Program-made: the position numbers and the translations under genes
Part shown: piece after piece, positions 1-8,096 of the stretch
How positions within the stretch are numbered: position 1 is the first letter of the stretch
Layout: the number at the start of each line of letters is the position of its first letter
DNA from: Polyangiales bacterium
GTDB lineage: Bacteria; Myxococcota_A; Polyangia; Polyangiales; Ga0077539
Length of the DNA: 64,000 bases
Assembly (NCBI GenBank): GCA_044229975.1
Contig: JBGARZ010000011.1
Span: 256,001-320,000, forward strand
Direction of reading: 5' to 3'
The notes under the pieces: generated by a model
The model's input: the letters and a program-made list of their open reading frames with translations, nothing else
Databases searched by the model: none
What the model was told of the DNA's origin: nothing

Positions 1-98
1 CTTCGTCCCGTCGGGCGACGGCGGGTCGATGAAGGTGGGCGGGTACGAGGAGTTCCACGACGGCGAGCCCACCTTGCGACGGAGATCGTCCCATCAGC

Positions 99-707
99 TC
101 ATCGCCACCCCTCGTCCAGCGCCTCGTGGTCGTCCCACAGCACCGCCTCGTCGTGAACCTTCACCACCGTCACGTCACGGTGCCCGGCGAGCGCCCGGCC
201 GAGGTCGTCCATCCAGGCGCGGTGCCGCGCTCCGGTCTCGTCGAAGGACCCACGATCGCGCCGCGTGAAGAACCGCTCGACGGCCCCGCCATCCGCCTCG
301 CGCCGCACGCGGCGGGAGAGCCGGGCCCCGTGCCGATGGACCACCGCGCGCACGTCGTCGCCCGGCGCGTCGAACCAACCGCGCGGTCCGCGCAGCAACG
401 CGTGCGACTCGCGGTAGAGGGCGCGCGAGTCGGCGCGCGACGGGCTCTCCACCTTCACGCGCAGGACGCGCACACCGTGCTCGGCAGCGAGCGCAACGAC
501 TCGCGCGCGGAGCTCGGCGAGCTGGTGCTCGTCGTGGTCGACGGCGAAGGTCACCATCGATTGGAGGAGCGATGAGCGCGCGTCGCCGGTGGGGAGTTCG
601 ATGGTGACGATCCTCGCCCGGAGCGCGTCGCGGAAGCGCTCGGTGGCGGCGGCGTCGTCGCGCTGGTCGATGGTCGCGTGCACCTCCAGCGGACGTCGGT
701 GGGCCAT
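99..707 (-). CDS. Hypothetical protein, 202 aa
   Basis: Protein-like ORF with GC-biased codons; no tyrosine recombinase motifs. Confidence 0.7.
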   Translation of the reverse strand: MAHRRPLEVHATIDQRDDAAATERFRDALRARIVTIELPTGDARSSLLQSMVTFAVDHDEHQLAELRARVVALAAEHGVRVLRVKVESPSRADSRALYRESHALLRGPRGWFDAPGDDVRAVVHRHGARLSRRVRREADGGAVERFFTRRDRGSFDETGARHRAWMDDLGRALAGHRDVTVVKVHDEAVLWDDHEALDEGWR

Positions 708-907
708 GCCGATCGCAGGCTCGCGCGGGGCGCAGCAGCGGTCAAACGGGCGGAGGGGGCACCCGGGGGGCGGTGCCGCGGGCGCTCGGCGGCTTGAGCA
801 GGTGCGTGTGGGCGGGGCAGCGCGGGGCAGGACGGGGACGGGGCGCGGTGGAGTGGAGGAGTGGAGAGGAAAGGAGAGTAGGAGAGGCTGGCGAAGAGCG
901 CCGAAAT

Positions 908-1033
908 GGGGTTATGGAATTGGGCAGCGAGCGGGCGAACAACGCGAACGGGGATATGGAACTGGGCAGCAAGCGGGCGAGCAGCGCCAGGGCGGGATTC
1001 GGTAATGGGGCGCGGGTGAATGAGATGTTGGGC
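908..1033 (+). mobile_element. Putative integron attI site
   Basis: Core GTTGGGC at 1027-1033, complementary to the GCCCAAC of attC1 and not part of an attC hairpin. Preceded by two 42-bp imperfect direct repeats (908-949, 950-991), each containing YTGGGCAGC. Confidence 0.55.
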
Positions 1034-1134
1034 AGCTTCGGCGAGCGGCAGACCACGAGCTGCCAAGGCCAACCGCGCGAAGACTTGCATGGCTTGTTTC
1101 GGCGGCAGACCGCCCCACCGATAAGCGTTAATCG

Positions 1135-1638
1135 ATGAGAGTCGTCAGTCCTCTAATCTTCAGTCTTTGGCAACGAAGCGTAGGTCTTGCGCTGTGGATA
1201 TTATTGCTTGGGCTCACGGTTGGGATCGGCGCATTGCTGAAATGTTTTATAGACATTAGCTGGCTGGAGCTTGCCATGACAGGTGTCGCAGGTGGGCTTG
1301 GCTCCCTCGGCTACGTAGCGTGGGCCGCGAGTAACGATTGGAATGGCCTCGTTTGGAAGCCACGAAGAGCATGGCAGGTGTCATTCGATGGACTCAGTCT
1401 GAGTGTCCAATCGAGCTACCTGAAGACAAATATTCCCCTGAGGTGCATCCACTCCGCATGTGTCGTCTCGGATGGATCGTGGGAGACTCTGAGGGGAATA
1501 GAAGATGTGTGCTTGGTCCTGAAAGTTAAGGGTTCCTTGCAAATTAGCATCCCTGGCTCTTCCGACGGTTTTGATGGAACGCGGAGCGCACTTGGGGCCT
1601 TGATCGATGTGAGTTTCAGGGAACTGGGAACAGATTGA
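1135..1638 (+). CDS. Cassette 1: membrane protein
   Basis: Two hydrophobic helices, AT-richer than host, ends 14 bp before attC1. Confidence 0.8.
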   Translation: MRVVSPLIFSLWQRSVGLALWILLLGLTVGIGALLKCFIDISWLELAMTGVAGGLGSLGYVAWAASNDWNGLVWKPRRAWQVSFDGLSLSVQSSYLKTNIPLRCIHSACVVSDGSWETLRGIEDVCLVLKVKGSLQISIPGSSDGFDGTRSALGALIDVSFRELGTD

Positions 1639-1652
1639 TGTGCAGTGGTGCA

Positions 1653-1743
1653 GCCCAACAAGCCGATGGTGCCGACCGCCCCCGTTTCACCCGCCGCCAA
1701 CCCGTCGCGCCCGATGCGGCGGCACATCGGCCAGCCGTTGGGC
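1653..1743 (+). repeat. attC site 1 (91 bp)
   Basis: GCCCAAC-AAGCCGATGGTGCCGACCGC...GCGGCGGCACATCGGCCAGCC-GTTGGGC; R and L boxes pair with extrahelical bases. Confidence 0.92.
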
Positions 1744-1836
1744 GGCCTCCACGCGGCAGTGCGTGGGTCACGGGCAGCGAGCGACGGGGCACGAACGGCG
1801 GTAAAGAAGATCGACGAGACCTCGGAGTGAAGTCGC

Positions 1837-2145
1837 GTGCGACGTGAGAACGGATCCCTGCGATGGTTGCGGCATCTCCCCGCTCTAGCGCTTGCGTGCC
1901 TGGCCGTTGCGAGCGTTGTATTGCTTCAACTATGGCCGAACATCCCGCGAACGAGGGGACAATGGGTCTTGCTTTGCGTGCTCGGTCCTCCACTCTACGT
2001 CTTGGCGGAGGCTCTCGCGGAGAGAATTTTCTCGGGAAAGGGCGGCAAGATTTCGCCAGAGGGGTTCCCTCTCAATCCCATCGCCGCAAGTGTAGCGGCG
2101 GCTCTGGCGATTTTCGCGGGCATATCATGGCTACTCGCCCAGTAG
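1837..2145 (+). CDS. Cassette 2: small membrane protein
   Basis: About three hydrophobic segments; GGAG upstream of GTG; stop 4 bp before attC2. Confidence 0.75.
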   Translation: MRRENGSLRWLRHLPALALACLAVASVVLLQLWPNIPRTRGQWVLLCVLGPPLYVLAEALAERIFSGKGGKISPEGFPLNPIAASVAAALAIFAGISWLLAQ

Positions 2146-2149
2146 TAGC

Positions 2150-2240
2150 GCCCAACAAGCCAATGGTGCCGACCGCCTCTACTTCACCCGTCCCCACCCC
2201 GCCGTGCCCGCTGCGGCGGCACGTCGGCCAGCCGTTGGGC
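2150..2240 (+). repeat. attC site 2 (91 bp)
   Basis: GCCCAAC...GTTGGGC, same family as attC1. Confidence 0.92.
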
Positions 2241-2295
2241 AGACAGAGATGGCTCCGTGCCTACGCTCCGGACGCACCGCATCGAGGGGTAGAAG

Positions 2296-2724
2296 ATGAC
2301 TCTCGATGACCTCGCCCAAGACCTCCCCAACGGGTTCCATGATGCGGAGGTCTGCAAGCTCACGTTCGACATTGCCCACCGCGTGGCGACGATAGAACTG
2401 GACGTCTGGATTGGCAGTATGGAAGCGCCCCCGGAGTTTGGCCGAGAAACGTATCGTCCGGCGGAACTGAACCTCCACGGTGTCGCTTATCTGGTGATTG
2501 AGGCACCAGACCCGACCTATCGGTATGCGAAGACGGGGCCAGTCTGCGTAGACCTCTGCGAGCCCGCCGACTCGGGGCAACTGCCTCCGGCTCAAGCCGG
2601 TGAGTTCGCCGCGCGCTTCTTCGTGAGCGACTGGAACTCCTTCATCAGCGTTTCCGCGAGAGACGCCGCACTTCGTTGGACCGGTGAGCCCTACGAGGCG
2701 GGGTGGAGAGGAGTCGACGAGTGA
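2296..2724 (+). CDS. Cassette 3: hypothetical acidic protein
   Basis: ATG with GAGGGG RBS; lies between attC2 and attC3. Confidence 0.8.
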   Translation: MTLDDLAQDLPNGFHDAEVCKLTFDIAHRVATIELDVWIGSMEAPPEFGRETYRPAELNLHGVAYLVIEAPDPTYRYAKTGPVCVDLCEPADSGQLPPAQAGEFAARFFVSDWNSFISVSARDAALRWTGEPYEAGWRGVDE

Positions 2725-2729
2725 GTGCC

Positions 2730-2780
2730 ACCCAGCAAGCCATTGCTGATGACGGGCCGCTGAACGGCAGGCCGTTTGAC
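2730..2780 (+). repeat. attC site 3, short and degenerate (51 bp), different type
   Basis: ACCCAGC-AAGCCATTGCTG...CTGAACGGCAGGCC-GTTTGAC, between two cassette ORFs. Confidence 0.6.
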
Positions 2781-2784
2781 CGCG

Positions 2785-3132
2785 ATGCAACGTGACGAAA
2801 TGCTCGCCGATGTTCTCTCGGAGATCACCCAGCGCCTCGGCGGGTCGGTCACAGGTCGGATTCGCGCAGATGCGCTTGTCTTGGTCTGCGAAGCGAACGG
2901 CGCAACCATCAGTATCACTGTGGACGCTGCAAGTCGTCGCTCGTTCTGCGTCACCTATCCTGGCTTCCGTCCAGAGGCCGCGTCTTGGAAAGACCGACAA
3001 GAACTTGTCGCCCAGAATGTTCTGCTGCCCGGCGTGCTGTGGATCGTTCGCGCGGTCGAGAAGGATGGCGCTGTCCTGCCAGAGTTTCCCAGACCAGGCC
3101 TTTGCAAGTGTGCGAATCGGACGCCTTCGTAG
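2785..3132 (+). CDS. Cassette 4: hypothetical protein
   Basis: ATG 4 bp after the attC3 core site. Confidence 0.65.
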   Translation: MQRDEMLADVLSEITQRLGGSVTGRIRADALVLVCEANGATISITVDAASRRSFCVTYPGFRPEAASWKDRQELVAQNVLLPGVLWIVRAVEKDGAVLPEFPRPGLCKCANRTPS

Positions 3133-3269
3133 TAGTCACCCCGCGTATGGGTGGCTGAGGGATGCGACGTGACAACGGCTAGAATCACATGCGAGACGAG
3201 GAGTGCCGGCAAAGTCAGGCTTTCGGGTGAGCCCTCAGTGACCACACCCACTTCTTCGATGATGGGCGT

Positions 3270-3360
3270 GCCCAAACAGCCGATGCTGCCGACCGGCCAC
3301 GCCTCACCCGCTCGCAACCCGTCGCATCCGCTGCGGCGGCACATCGGCCAGTCGTTAGGC
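3270..3360 (+). repeat. attC site 4 (91 bp)
   Basis: GCCCAAACAGCCGATGCTGCCGACC...GGCGGCACATCGGCCAGTC-GTTAGGC. Confidence 0.9.
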
Positions 3361-3452
3361 GGCTTCAGCGAGACGATCAGGCAGCAGGAGTTGTGCGCGA
3401 ACGACGAAAGAGCGAGTAGCGGCCAAGCCACTACGTGATGAGAGACTGAAAG

Positions 3453-3824
3453 ATGACGGCGCGAGGCAGTGGACCACTGGCCATAGGATGTGCAGCCCTC
3501 GCGATGATCTCAGCGTGCGGCGCTGGCGACTCGTTCTTTATCCTTGAGGCGCGTGTGACCTCTTGCCGCTCCGGTGCTCCCGTAAACGGGGCGAGGGCGG
3601 TCCTGAGGTTGGACAGAGGTTATGGCGAACCCGATCTAGCCGTTCAGGTCGACGTGAACGGACGACTCCATATGGCGATCAACGAGCCAGCATCGGCATG
3701 GGCCACGCTTACGGTCGAAGCTTCCAACCACAAACGGTGGACACACCAGTTTCGAGGTCGACCTCGTCCTGGAGTTGCCATCTGCCTTGAACCTCAGGAC
3801 AATCGTCCTGCGAGTACACCTTGA
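3453..3824 (+). CDS. Cassette 5: putative lipoprotein with a carboxypeptidase-regulatory-like beta domain
   Basis: Signal peptide with lipobox ISAC; SGAPVNGARAVL segment. Confidence 0.7.
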   Translation: MTARGSGPLAIGCAALAMISACGAGDSFFILEARVTSCRSGAPVNGARAVLRLDRGYGEPDLAVQVDVNGRLHMAINEPASAWATLTVEASNHKRWTHQFRGRPRPGVAICLEPQDNRPASTP

Positions 3825-3870
3825 GTGAGCCGGGCGACTATCGCGTGCCGAATCAGATTCGCGGGACACG

Positions 3871-3961
3871 GCCCAACAAGCCGATGGTGCCGACCGCCCC
3901 CGCTTCACCCGCCGCCAACCCGTCGCGCCCGATGCGGCGGCGCAGCGGCCAGTCGTTGGGC
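3871..3961 (+). repeat. attC site 5 (91 bp)
   Basis: GCCCAAC...GTTGGGC, near-identical to attC1. Confidence 0.92.
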
Positions 3962-4029
3962 AGCCTCGGCGAGAGGCGTTTTGGCCGAGCGAACTCGCGA
4001 CCCCGCGTGAGGAGGAGTAGAACCAACCC

Positions 4030-4281
4030 ATGAACGACGTTGAACATGTCTTGGCTGCTGCGCTGCAACTGCCGGCCACCGAGCGCGCGGCGGTCGTCGC
4101 TGAATTACTCGACAGTCTCGACGATCTCGGGCCGGCCGACGAGGGGGTCGAACGGGCGTGGGCTGAGGAAGCCCAGAGACGGCTAGCGGAGGTGGACTCG
4201 GGGGCGGTGACGCCAATCCCGTGGGCCGAGGCCCGGCGCCGCATTCTCGCCGCGGCGAACGGTCGACGTGAAACCCCTTGA
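4030..4281 (+). CDS. Cassette 6: addiction-module antitoxin (TIGR02574-like)
   Basis: ALQLPATERAAVVAELLDSL...AWAEEAQRRLAEVDSGAVTPIPW; GAGGAG RBS. Confidence 0.88.
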   Translation: MNDVEHVLAAALQLPATERAAVVAELLDSLDDLGPADEGVERAWAEEAQRRLAEVDSGAVTPIPWAEARRRILAAANGRRETP

Positions 4282-4555
4282 GCTACACCCGCGCGCCCTC
4301 GTTGAAAGCGAGGACGCCGCGGCATGGTATGCGGAACGCGATCCGCGAGTGGCGGCGCGTTTTGTTGAAGAACTCGACGTGACTCTTGGGCTCATCGTCG
4401 AGGCGCCAAATCGCTGACCAATCTATCTCGATGTCCGCCGGGCTCTCCTCTCCAAGTTTCCGTATGCCGTTCTCTACCGTGATGAGCCGACACGCATCCT
4501 CGTGGTAGCCATTGCTCACGCCAAGCGACAACCGGGGTACTGGCAGGGTAGGTGA
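4268..4555 (+). pseudogene. Cassette 6: RelE/ParE-family toxin with an internal stop
   Basis: MKPLELHPRALVESEDAAAWY...APNR*PIYLDVRRALLSKFPYAVLY...VVAIAHAKRQPGYW; in-frame TGA at 4415-4417; overlaps the antitoxin. Confidence 0.85.
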
Positions 4556-4561
4556 CGGCGT

Positions 4562-4652
4562 GCCCAACAAGCCGATGGTGCCGACCGCCCCCACCTCACC
4601 CGCCGTCAACCCATCGCGCCCGCTGCGGCGGCCCATCGGCCAGTCGTTCGGC
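4562..4652 (+). repeat. attC site 6 (91 bp)
   Basis: GCCCAAC...GTTCGGC. Confidence 0.9.
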
Positions 4653-4725
4653 GGGGCGCGGGCGGCGTGCTAGGACGCACACCATGCTGCTGACCCCTCA
4701 CCTCTCAATCATGAGGAGACGTACA

Positions 4726-5259
4726 ATGCCAAATACAGGCGCAGACCTTTCTGCTGTAGAGGGGGTCGTATCCTCCAGGGTCCTCGACGCCATGCGCACC
4801 GCTTCGGACGAGTTGTCCCGCCTCGGCGTGCGGCATGCGCTAGTGGGCGGCCTCGCCGTTGGCGCGCATGGCTACCCGCGCGCCACGAAGGACGTCGACT
4901 TTCTCGTGGGTGATGAGGCCTTCGAGCATCACGGAGGTGGGATCGTCACGATGAAGCCAGGCATTCCGATCCAGATCAACGGGGTTTTGGTCGATCTGCT
5001 CTCGGCACAGCCAGATGAAGGTGCGCTTGGTGCTGTGCCTGTCGTCCGGAATGGCGTCGACGTCCCTATCGCACCAATCGAGGCGCTGGTTTATCTCAAG
5101 TTGAAGTCGCCGCGCCTCAAAGACGCCGCTGACATCATTGAGTTGCTCAAGGTCGGCATTGACCATACGCGTTGCCGCGCGTGGCTCACAACGAACGCGC
5201 CAATGCTGGTACCTCAGTTCGAAGAATTGATCGAGCGCGCCCAGCGAGAAAGCGAATAG
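4726..5259 (+). CDS. Cassette 7: nucleotidyltransferase-fold protein (DUF6036/AbiEii-like)
   Basis: LVGGLAVGAHGYPRATKDVDFLV and KLKSPRLKDAAD motifs; GAGGAG RBS. Confidence 0.85.
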   Translation: MPNTGADLSAVEGVVSSRVLDAMRTASDELSRLGVRHALVGGLAVGAHGYPRATKDVDFLVGDEAFEHHGGGIVTMKPGIPIQINGVLVDLLSAQPDEGALGAVPVVRNGVDVPIAPIEALVYLKLKSPRLKDAADIIELLKVGIDHTRCRAWLTTNAPMLVPQFEELIERAQRESE

Positions 5260-5342
5260 GCAATGGGGGACAACGGACACTCCGCGCGGGATCATGGGCA
5301 GGTCGCGACAAGCCAAGTTCATTGATAGTACACCGCATGGGA

Positions 5343-5430
5343 GCAGAACAAGCCGATGGTGCCGCCCGCTCCCACCACACCCGCCAACCCGCTTCACCCA
5401 ATGCGGCGGAACATCGGCCAGCCGTTGGAT
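5343..5430 (+). repeat. attC site 7 (88 bp)
   Basis: GCAGAAC-AAGCCGATGGTGCCG...CGGAACATCGGCCAGCC-GTTGGAT. Confidence 0.85.
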
Positions 5431-5461
5431 TGCCCCGGCGCATGCCCGGAGGACTGGTCTT

Positions 5462-5950
5462 GTGGCTCCTGAACACGCGGAGTTCATCGTCACGCCGCGG
5501 TCGTTCGACCGTTCAGGCCCCAACGCGGTCACCGGTCCGATCTGGCTCCGACGCAGCGCCCGCGACGGGGCGCATGCGGACTTCCCCTATACCGGCTGGA
5601 CGGACTTTCCAATCCGCATTCTCGCGGCTTGGTTGACTGGCCTGGCCGTCCTCGCGAGCGGTGAGGTCAGCGAGTCCATGTGCCACTTCGCGGATGGCCC
5701 GTTCATGCTCGCTGTGGCCGACGCGGGGAATACGCTGCTGCGCGTACGCTGCGTCGAACACCATGCCGACAGCGACCCGCTCGTGGTCGGTGACTTCTTT
5801 ACGCCCGCCAGAGTGCTTTACGGGAGCCTTCGTGCCGCGGCGGTGGCCGCGCTGGCTGAGTGCGACCGGCGTGGCTGGTCGAACGATGACGTTGACGAGC
5901 TCAGAGACGTGCTGGTCTCTTGTAACGATGCCCGCAGTCGAGTCCCGTAG
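5462..5950 (+). CDS. Cassette 8: hypothetical protein, own attC not found
   Basis: GTG start with GGAGG RBS just after attC7. Confidence 0.75.
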   Translation: MAPEHAEFIVTPRSFDRSGPNAVTGPIWLRRSARDGAHADFPYTGWTDFPIRILAAWLTGLAVLASGEVSESMCHFADGPFMLAVADAGNTLLRVRCVEHHADSDPLVVGDFFTPARVLYGSLRAAAVAALAECDRRGWSNDDVDELRDVLVSCNDARSRVP

Positions 5951-6113
5951 CCCTACGAGACCCGATGAGTTGTTCGGACGGGGACTGCGAGCCTGACCGT
6001 TGCGCACCGCGCCGACGCTGCGGTGGGGGCCCGGCAACCGCGGGCCGGACCGTCGCGCGCCCGATGTCCATCACCGATAGCCCGACTGGTGTTCTAGAAC
6101 ACCCGCGGCGACG

Positions 6114-6473
6114 TCAGGCCGGCGGATCAGCCTTCTTGCGCGGCCAGAAGACCATCGCGAGCACCGCGCCCCACACGACAAGCGCCGACCCGTACACGAT
6201 GCCGAAGCTCTTCGGGTAGACGTTGCCCCCGAGGTCGTGGCCGCCCGCGTCGACGCAGAACGCCTCGTCGGCCTCATGCGTACGGCCGCCCGAGTACGTC
6301 CGGTAGGAGTGGAAGCGCATATGATGGCTGCCCTCCGGGCACACCAGCGTCTTCGTAAACCCGATGCCGCCCGGCGCCACGTGCGTGACGCAGCTCGTGA
6401 ACATCGCTGGGATGATCAACAGCGCCACCAGTCCCGCCGCGATGAGGTTGCCCTTCGAGATCTGTATGCCCAC
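6114..6473 (-). CDS. Small membrane protein
   Basis: Two TM segments around a Cys-containing loop; start uncertain. Confidence 0.6.
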   Translation of the reverse strand: MGIQISKGNLIAAGLVALLIIPAMFTSCVTHVAPGGIGFTKTLVCPEGSHHMRFHSYRTYSGGRTHEADEAFCVDAGGHDLGGNVYPKSFGIVYGSALVVWGAVLAMVFWPRKKADPPA

Positions 6474-6676
6474 GGGGTCCCTTCGTATCACGAGGCCCCG
6501 CGAGTGGTCAGGGGTTCGATCGGCCCGTCGACCGTCGTCCACGTCGACGGCTGCGATGCACGCCATGCAGCCGCCCATGCCGTACCCGCCGAGCGATGAA
6601 CCGATGCCCGAGTGGAGGTTCTCCGACGGAGCAACCCGGTCGACGTATCCCCGCGATGACCGTATCTGTCTCCGCG

Positions 6677-6970
6677 ATGATCGTGATGGATCAACCCCGC
6701 GACTGGGGCGGCGCGTTCAACCGTCGGTGGGGGCCGTCCAACCACCTGCTGTCCGACCTCGTCGGCGAGGAGGGCTCGCGCGAGCTCGCGGCCTTCGTCG
6801 CGGCGATGGGCGTCTCGTGGGCGCCCGTCCAGCACCCCGGCACCTACCGCGAGCACCACGACCTCGCGGGCGAGTGGATCGACCGCGCCCGCTCCCTCGG
6901 CGCGACGACGCTCGACCGCGCGGCCTTCGTCGGCGTCCTGCGCCGCAAGCGCGAGGCGATGGGCGTGTAG
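6677..6970 (+). CDS. DUF4031-family protein
   Basis: HLLSD...ELAAFVAAMGV...EHHDL...ARSLGA pattern. Confidence 0.7.
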   Translation: MIVMDQPRDWGGAFNRRWGPSNHLLSDLVGEEGSRELAAFVAAMGVSWAPVQHPGTYREHHDLAGEWIDRARSLGATTLDRAAFVGVLRRKREAMGV

Positions 6971-7259
6971 CGCGACGGCGCGTCAGTCCGGCAGCGGCGC
7001 GGGCGTCTCCAGCGCGGGACGAGCCGCTTCGATCCAGTCGGGTTCGAGCCCCGGCGTCGGTCGACACCGGCGTGGTGCCAGCGTCGTCCGCCGCCGGGGA
7101 TGTCCTCGTTGCCGGAGCGTCGCCACCGCGAGGTAGCGGCCGTCGGGTGAGTACTCCAACGTCCGCGACTCCAGCTTCCACGCGCGGCGGGCGCGGGCGC
7201 GGCACGCGGCGCGGGCCTTGGCTGTCCCCCGTTCGGTGGCGCGCGGGTAGAGTCCGCGC

Positions 7260-8096
7260 ATGGCAACCACGAGAGAGATCACGACACAGACGCTGGCGCT
7301 GAACTCGGGCGCAGCGATTCCCACGGTCGGCCTCGGCGTCTGGCAGGCGGCCGCGGGCGAGAGCACACGCGAGGCGGTGCTGGCCGCGCTGCGCTTCGGC
7401 TATCGCCATATCGACACGGCGCGCATCTACAACAACGAGGCCGACGTCGGCGCCGCCATCGCCGAGAGCGGCATCCCCCGCGCCGAGATCTTCGTCACCA
7501 CGAAGCTCTGGAACGCCGACCACGGCTACGACAAGGCGCTGCGTGCGTTCGATGCCAGCGCCGCGCGCCTGAAGCTCGATTACGTCGACCTCTATCTCAT
7601 CCACTGGCCCGTGGCGGGCAAGCGCCTCGACTCGTGGCGCGCGCTGGAGACCCTGTTCGAAGCGAAGCGGGCGCGCTCCATCGGCGTGAGCAACTACCTG
7701 GTGCCGCACCTTGAAGAGCTGCTCGCGCACGCCAGGCACCCGCCCGCCGCCAACCAGATCGAGCTCTCGCCGTTCTTGCAGCGCCGCGAGACGCGGGCGC
7801 TGTGCGAGAAGAACAACATCGTGCTGGAGGCGTACAGCCCGCTCACGCGCGGTCAGCGGCTCGGCCACCCCGTGGTGACGGCCGTCGCCCGGGAGAGTGG
7901 CCGCTCGCCCGCCCAGGTGCTCTTGCGCTGGGGCGTGCAGCACGGCTTCGTGGTGCTGCCCAAGTCGGTGCACGCCGCGCGCATCGCCGAGAACGGAACG
8001 CTGTTCGACTTCGCCCTCGACCCGGCGCAGATGGCGCGGCTCGACGCGCTCGAAGAGAACCTCGCGACAGGATGGGACCCGGCCGATCAGGCGTGA
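7260..8096 (+). CDS. Aldo/keto reductase (2,5-DKG reductase type)
   Basis: GYRHIDTARIYNNE, FVTTKLW, DLYLIHWP, IGVSN, LPKS motifs. Confidence 0.95.
   Translation: MATTREITTQTLALNSGAAIPTVGLGVWQAAAGESTREAVLAALRFGYRHIDTARIYNNEADVGAAIAESGIPRAEIFVTTKLWNADHGYDKALRAFDASAARLKLDYVDLYLIHWPVAGKRLDSWRALETLFEAKRARSIGVSNYLVPHLEELLAHARHPPAANQIELSPFLQRRETRALCEKNNIVLEAYSPLTRGQRLGHPVVTAVARESGRSPAQVLLRWGVQHGFVVLPKSVHAARIAENGTLFDFALDPAQMARLDALEENLATGWDPADQA

Follow-up and report, generated by a model that had tools for sequence, protein, structure and literature searches.

How does an array of integron cassettes come to stand in a chromosome with no integrase gene beside it, and might it still take up cassettes? 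This question is raised by an array at the start of a 64,000-nt window of DNA from a Polyangiales bacterium (GenBank assembly GCA_044229975.1). The window, by which we mean the whole stretch analysed, corresponds to C2:256001-320000 of the studied genome (G000; 10 Mb in 39 contigs, 93% complete); C-numbers denote contigs of this genome and other G-numbers comparison genomes, of which G047-G049 are Sorangium with closed chromosomes. The array lies inside the 355-kb contig C2 with ordinary genes on both sides. By definition it is a CALIN (a cluster of attC sites without integron-integrases), a common kind of array, and it is neither a complete nor a sedentary integron. What is new here is that it starts at a predicted attI site with direct repeats, and that eight such sites are predicted in a genome with one intact integrase (IntI). 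We suggest, at slightly better than even odds (about 0.55), that the array is a relic, left by an entire integron platform that lost intI in place, and that its attI is probably still open in trans to the IntI encoded on contig C4.

Results

The array and its attC family

A preliminary description of the locus, made from the sequence alone, had seen eight co-oriented cassettes of lower GC content separated by seven attC-like sites, and this picture stood up. Eight plus-strand open reading frame (ORF) units, all co-oriented, lie between attC-type sites (Table 1), and the GC content is 0.63 in the array against 0.71 in the genome. Six of the seven sites are homologous repeats and one is a degenerate site of another type; the five 91-bp near-copies that had been described are 77-96% identical in pairwise comparison, and the sixth homologous repeat, at 5343, has 88 nt. 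Sites were called with a profile and box rules made for this analysis, and judged by their sequence the repeats are attC sites, with R'', L'', L' and R' boxes and an unpaired central spacer. For the site at 1653, the bottom strand forms the canonical hairpin, in which two bases are extrahelical (z -3.2); singly, the other homologous sites are not significant by folding energy (z -2.1 to +0.8). All homologous sites keep 16-19 of the 19 consensus stem pairs, and the 51-nt site at 2730-2780 did not fold into a single hairpin.

A canonical attC site has an L'-R' spacer of 5-6 nt. The spacer is 8 nt, outside this range, in all 31 filtered sites of the genome, whereas near 80 relatives of IntI it is 6 nt in most sites (39/49) and 8 nt in seven, six of them in Polyangiales-type records; the 8-nt spacer is a lineage variant. 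Among 106 anchored sites of the family, analysed out of 114 collected, the AAC/GTT pairs are kept in 103-105 and the inner stem pairs in 89-104, with a few compensatory changes. On the R''-L'' arm of the bottom strand, a C is unpaired in 105/106 and a T in 99/106. The first extrahelical base of the family is thus C and not the usual G, a replacement that is tolerated according to Bouvier et al. (PMC2727003).

Matches to the attC family were obtained from 19 of the 24 same-family genomes, whereas of 16 genomes from other families two gave weak ones; this agrees with the lineage-specific attC family proposed earlier. Within the studied genome the repeat is not scattered: the 43 profile matches form 10 clusters, arranged as arrays, on 9 of the 39 contigs. 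An Rfam search of window positions 1-8000 returned one chance-level match outside the array, and the attC arm had no match in the viral contigs and plasmids searched. Of 67 adjacent pairs, 52 have an R'' that is a perfect complement of the upstream R box, and in 21 it perfectly complements its own R'; the permutation mean was 17.3 and none of 5000 permutations reached 52, a statistic in which the arrays are related and the 67 pairs not independent. Because R'' fits the upstream R box better than its own R', the cassette units have been shuffled in the past. The attC sites tend only weakly to decay as they lie farther from attI (rho -0.23, p 0.049, from sites that are not independent).

A predicted attI at the head of the array

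The array is predicted to keep an attI at its head, and for this reason we regard it as more than a fragment. The 41-nt direct repeats of the leader are candidate accessory integrase-binding repeats. The leader shares 92-95% identity with those that precede intI-less arrays on C20 and C23, and over its 5' part it resembles, at 89% identity, the intI-attI region of a G002 complete integron. In G002 a leader is split by an insertion of ~1.3 kb. In the core, the L box, the spacer and the first three nucleotides of the R box (GTT) are identical to those adjoining intact intI in G014 and G021, and the R box complements R'' of the first attC.

A position weight matrix (PWM) for attI was trained on 13 intI-linked sites with hand-chosen positions, some of them beside broken intI and one from C4. 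It gave eight matches in the genome at 21.9-34.2, with the window at 31.8, and the next match, the background maximum, scored 16.9. Seven of the eight predicted sites head arrays and one stands at the end of C2. With a stricter PWM of nine sites, from which C4 and the three closest cores had been left out, six matches stayed on top (19.1-29.2), the window included, while those on C4 and C14 dropped out. A 13-nt core pattern was found 26 times in 15 of 31 family genomes, against once for the reversed pattern; as read, four of the 26 matches lie by full-length intI, four by partial intI, 13 without intI (up to 1.5 kb), two at contig edges, and three are chance matches. A metagenome scan with the leader pattern gave one chance match.

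Some neighbouring observations concern the same sites. A decayed attI (score 12.6) at C39:236899 overlaps a chromosomal stop codon, and the site at C8:36222, after a transposase-like gene, gave no attI match. A TTGAC motif pointing at the array lies 72-79 nt past the intI stop in complete integrons (7 of 13 post-intI regions); the motif, with GCGTAGC or similar behind it, recurs 193-416 nt upstream of attI at C14, C19, the C2 end and G001:C18. This motif, possibly a platform-end promoter, is absent from the window.

The integrase and its remnants

That no tyrosine recombinase is encoded near the array proved correct: none of the 12 PF00589 matches in the genome lies on C2, and tblastn of IntI against the window gave a best E value of 0.37. 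The position that intI would occupy holds, as described, an unrelated 202-aa gene, whose product has no Pfam or NCBIfam match. The preliminary description had left open whether an integrase might serve the array in trans, and a search of the whole genome for IntI with profile models found one candidate. This single intact IntI, on C4, has an open frame of 316 aa uninterrupted by a stop and scores 414.7 bits with TIGR02249 (cut-off 265); its gene is divergent and heads an array of the same attC family as that in the window. The closest relatives of the C4 protein are titled Deltaproteobacteria and Polyangiales (84-85%) and Sorangium and Polyangium (71-77%), as the suggested myxobacterium-like host would lead one to expect. 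A tyrosine recombinase on C19 was considered as a second IntI and rejected, since it falls below the TIGR02249 cut-off and is paired with an IS91 transposase.

Decayed intI is found at sister loci. The C20 leader, 92.6% identical to that of the window, abuts the 3' half of a decayed intI, and the C28 leader does likewise. Since no relic is detectable at the window itself, loss of intI in place is proposed there by analogy. A relic picked out by eye at 716-815 was discarded, the profile searches being negative and alignments to shuffled sequences giving p 0.74 (tail).

Platforms in relatives and in Sorangium

Frameshifted, 5'-deleted and 3'-deleted copies of intI occur in the relatives, whose complete integrons stand at unrelated loci; a long flank is common to only two of the loci with intI that were compared. 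At L027 and L035 (G002:C5 and G004:C194), the flanks are 95% identical, the intI alleles only 87% identical and the leaders different; the gene beside these flanks is presumably rnpB-like. Relatives have empty sites for the C14 array and the second C23 array, where the flanks lie 18 and 67 nt from each other. For the window locus no empty allele was found, and its flanks are not syntenic in the eight same-genus genomes. The closed Sorangium chromosomes carry eight (G049), three (G048) and one (G047) attI cores, with none in the control. In G049, two of the cores go with a broken full-length intI, two with a partial intI and three with a post-intI segment without a blastn-level intI match, and one is bare; attC-like sites follow five of the eight under the strict rule. 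A series from intact through broken and part-deleted to absent intI thus recurs in relatives and in closed Sorangium chromosomes. The loci in relatives, the empty sites and the Sorangium series together suggest that whole platforms arrive at many loci and then lose intI.

The Sorangium platform (L211, L223, L224, L225; G047-G049) extends ~2.2 kb past the intI stop and carries an XRE helix-turn-helix gene, an extracytoplasmic function (ECF)-like sigma factor and RadC/JAB. This module is repeated at different loci as a deletion series, with radC-bearing pieces also standing without intI; it was not found beside the family loci examined. Platform homology frays ~0-200 nt after radC, except in two pairs with shared flanks, and in 13 of 14 Sorangium ends (one was without an anchor) a sharp outer end was sought and no terminal site found.

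Cassettes shared between intI-less sites

Two intI-less attI with different leaders, on C19 and at the end of C2, are followed by the same first cassette, identical over 135/135 assembled nucleotides, and a cassette at the C23 start shares 99.1% identity with the next one on C19. In sequencing run X5, one contig matches window positions 989-1031 with one difference and no gap and then, at the crossover, enters the first cassette shared by C19 and the C2 end, 30 letters of which equal the copy in this genome. The two intI-less attI with near-identical cassettes and the X5 contig provide indirect support, at the level of sequence, for the idea that the window attI can still be reached in trans.

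The shared first cassette is IS91-like (C19:433340-436055 [L064], C2:354654-end and G001:C151:300860-303558). It encodes a tyrosine recombinase and an IS91 (Y2) transposase, begins at the crossover of attI and closes with an attC-like hairpin, the R'' of which is complementary to the attI R box; it is the first cassette at three intI-less attI and is 89% identical between two species. Contig G001:C151 (303 kb), which ends in attI and this cassette, begins with an attC array in the same direction, an arrangement that would fit a circular molecule or an assembly break. Duplicated cassettes are seen near array heads (L051 = G003:C232, L027, C23:1-1111), intI-less arrays included, which is the pattern expected of excision and reinsertion.

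Cassette contents and the distal end

The coordinates of the features are collected in Table 1. PADLOC gave no family for the eight cassette proteins, a set that left out the ParE-like gene. The ParE-like toxin frame of cassette 6 is broken by a TGA at 4415-4417, and the ParE halves score below the cut-off; the second C23 array has a cassette 90.7% identical to it with the toxin frame open, and further copies occur in G002 and G008. For the protein of cassette 7, the ESM Atlas gave a features value of 0.97, with AbiEii on 13% of the members of the first cluster and 75% of those of a later cluster; the product is likely an AbiEii-like nucleotidyltransferase, a lead only.

Table 1. Features of the cassette array and its borders, in window coordinates
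Feature	Coordinates	Strand	Remarks
Unrelated 202-aa gene in intI position	99-707	-	Not part of the integron; no match in 8 same-genus genomes searched
attI leader	880-1014	+	Two 41-nt direct repeats (905-945, 947-987), 85% alike
Predicted attI core	1015-1033	+	L box 1015-1021, 5-nt spacer, R box 1027-1033, crossover G/TT
Cassette 1 ORF, 167 aa	1135-1638	+	No family above cut-off
attC 1 (91 nt)	1653-1743	+	19/19 consensus stem pairs
Cassette 2 ORF, 102 aa, hydrophobic	1837-2145	+	No family
attC 2 (91 nt)	2150-2240	+	Homologous repeat
Cassette 3 ORF, 142 aa	2296-2724	+	No family; cassette 85% identical to one in G001 array
Short degenerate attC, other type (51 nt)	2730-2780	+	G001 copy has the same short form
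Cassette 4 ORF, 115 aa	2785-3132	+	No family
attC 4 (91 nt)	3270-3360	+	R'' altered, 16/19 pairs
Cassette 5 ORF, 123 aa	3453-3824	+	No family above cut-off
attC 5 (91 nt)	3871-3961	+	Homologous repeat
Cassette 6, toxin-antitoxin pair	4030-4555	+	Antitoxin 4030-4281 (PF09720, E 9.5e-17); ParE-like toxin 4268-4555
attC 6 (91 nt)	4562-4652	+	Homologous repeat
Cassette 7 ORF, 177 aa	4726-5259	+	No Pfam match
attC 7 (88 nt)	5343-5430	+	R'' degenerate
Cassette 8 ORF, ~162 aa	5462-5950	+	GTG start behind GGAGG; no attC; longer frame scanned, no family
Half of genome-wide REP/BIME-like repeat, in place of attC 8	5930-6061		110 blastn segments, spread over many contigs

The region 5930-6120, considered as an eighth attC, was rejected, since it belongs to a repeat resembling repetitive extragenic palindromes (REP) and bacterial interspersed mosaic elements (BIME); in this composite repeat, tandem palindromes of 54 nt surround a linker. 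Upstream of the window, at C2:248947-249229 (L059:448-730), lies another palindromic repeat, ~245-280 nt long and present in many copies in the genome. After the gene at 99-707 comes one for an AbiEii nucleotidyltransferase (PF08843, E 8e-18; C2:255119-256072).

Discussion

We propose the following course of events. A complete integron platform would have been inserted at the window locus, and cassettes would have been added singly at the G/TT of attI by attC x attI recombination. The integrase gene would have been lost afterwards, as the graded relics at sister loci suggest, and the distal end would have decayed and fused with the REP-like repeat. On a weaker footing, the C4 IntI, or one from an incoming integron, may act in trans on the window attI and on intact attC sites, several entry sites then being run with one enzyme. 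As to whether the array is served or orphaned, the alternative posed at the outset, we lean to served.

Several observations weigh against this reading. Profile searches detected no intI relic by the window leader, and in alignments to shuffled sequences the likeness of the window to an intI promoter region is borderline (p 0.053); a search upstream of attI for a sigma-70-type promoter (candidate Pc) gave no match. The margin of the stricter PWM is thin, its lowest kept site scoring 19.1 against 18.3 for the background and 19.0 for the reversed matrix, and the L box of the C4 attI differs from that of the window. The link between the C2 end and the C23 start is drawn over a break between contigs, the X5 evidence consists of one record of 368 nt whose end falls within the leader, short of any flank, and the shared first cassette may insert without IntI because it encodes its own tyrosine recombinase and IS91 transposase. 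No window cassette is common to the complete C4 array. Leaders of this kind are present in G001, G003 and G008 (92-94% complete), in which no full-length IntI was found, and in G049 the two full-length copies of intI are both broken. Because these four genomes have heads with no intact IntI found, orphaned platforms do exist.

These last points bear on a frozen relic, which would have the same origin but an attI out of use, the C4 IntI being silent or blind to this attI type, so that the array only decays. Such decay is visible in the broken ParE frame, in the degeneration of attC 3, 4 and 7 and in the loss of attC 8, and the cassettes shared with sister arrays are only 84-91% identical. An attI is also described as recognised only by its cognate integrase (abstract of PMC2095811), and attI-headed arrays occur in relatives for which no intact IntI was found. 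Short contigs from four runs (2016-2024) are almost the same in sequence as the window cassettes and show two junctions in the window order and no cassette-skipping or other alternative joint; however, their depth of ~2-3 is too low for rare variants. Moreover, neither the attI core nor attC 1 is damaged, X5 has a window-type attI followed by a different first cassette, and cassettes 99-100% identical stand behind other intI-less attI. We therefore consider a frozen relic unlikely, while taking it more seriously than the explanations that follow. Another is that attI and cassettes moved without intI, as a circle excised by IntI between a secondary site in the leader and a downstream attC and inserted at a chromosomal GWT site (attG), which would have seeded a further entry site. 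Three leaders of the genome, 88-94% identical, do stand at unrelated loci; that of the second C23 array begins ~25 nt after a chromosomal stop codon with no relic, and G014 has an 87-nt copy of attI without intI, next to GTT and 94% identical to that of a complete integron. The preprint 10.1101/2022.09.11.507474 reports IntI insertion at GWT sites in E. coli, but its data on attI1 with genomic sites give no significant recombination rate. A circle could not keep the 3' half of intI without the 5' half (C20, C28), nor a post-intI segment (Sorangium), and there is no GTT junction at the left end of the window leader. Candidate attG-type junctions at C39 and at the second C23 array were dismissed, since the letters in question are part of the attI repeat or of the native flank. 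This route seems to us quite improbable for the window.

It is hardly credible that a rearrangement or the assembly detached the array from the single C4 integron. The C4 array does share the attC family, and Cury et al. (PMC4889954), in their account of draft genomes, state that these split arrays, but a 355-kb contig, ordinary flanking genes, an attI of its own and a leader unlike that of C4 contradict the idea, and the pattern recurs in closed chromosomes. Going further than the relic of a platform favoured here, one may speculate that Polyangiales have a distributed integron, in which platforms are repeatedly planted without a transposase and most shed intI yet keep a working attI, one integrase serving at least eight entry sites. 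We put this forward tentatively, and as rather doubtful. If true, many "CALINs" would be live satellite integrons invisible to current tools, and the unit that spreads in Sorangium would also carry an XRE regulator, an ECF-like sigma factor and RadC.

The lineage attI motif indicates that an array of CALIN type can descend from a whole platform and retain its entry site while intI is lost by degrees. Counting complete integrons only likely understates the sites of gene capture in myxobacteria, for which a survey of 3,229 genomes gives 192 complete integrons (bioRxiv 2026.09.14.751636). Because closed chromosomes of Sorangium strains show the series, both the use of satellite attI in trans and the route by which platforms spread can be tested at the bench.

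Comparison with known systems

In the literature searched (main texts, with few subscription papers), no paper dealt with several attI-headed arrays in one genome or in Polyangiales, and supplementary CALIN tables may list such loci. According to the sections of Cury et al. on CALINs (PMC4889954), most integrons have no known attI and the site cannot be searched for, an intI pseudogene is missing from the vicinity of 95% of CALINs, and half of CALINs are in genomes that encode IntI. Use of CALIN cassettes in trans is stated to be possible in passages of PMC9668308 and bioRxiv 2025.06.18.660453, and taxon-specific attC, with a Deltaproteobacteria model, appear among the models of PMC8352920.

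Lone attC sites without integron-integrases (SALINs) and the small CALINs made at attG likewise place cassettes at dispersed sites away from intI. Those, as presented in bioRxiv 2022.09.11.507474, start at a bare GWT, whereas the window array has an attI with its leader and eight cassettes. The IS91-like first cassette at two other attI of the genome resembles the ISShvi3-like IS91 element next to attC that is mentioned for Shewanella in PMC9229058; unlike that element, it has the attI crossover as its boundary and has been seen in two species at several attI, and it is not in the window.

The homogeneous attC sites had been taken as typical of sedentary chromosomal integrons, and that likeness holds in part. 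Like the Vibrio and the Xanthomonas ilvD types, the present system has homogeneous, taxon-specific attC, a toxin-antitoxin cassette and frequent inactivation of intI, and further loci with CALINs are noted for Xanthomonas as well (in the part of bioRxiv 2025.06.18.660453 on that genus). The likeness is only partial because the complete integrons of relatives stand at unrelated loci: there is no fixed locus, the arrays are short and many, and a genome holds several intI copies or relics. With CALINs the window array shares at least two attC with no intI nearby, a small size, cassette genes that are mostly unknown, and an IntI elsewhere in the genome. Unlike the CALINs of Cury et al., it keeps a predicted attI with direct repeats, one of eight such heads in the genome, and we somewhat favour the view that it works like a satellite integron platform.

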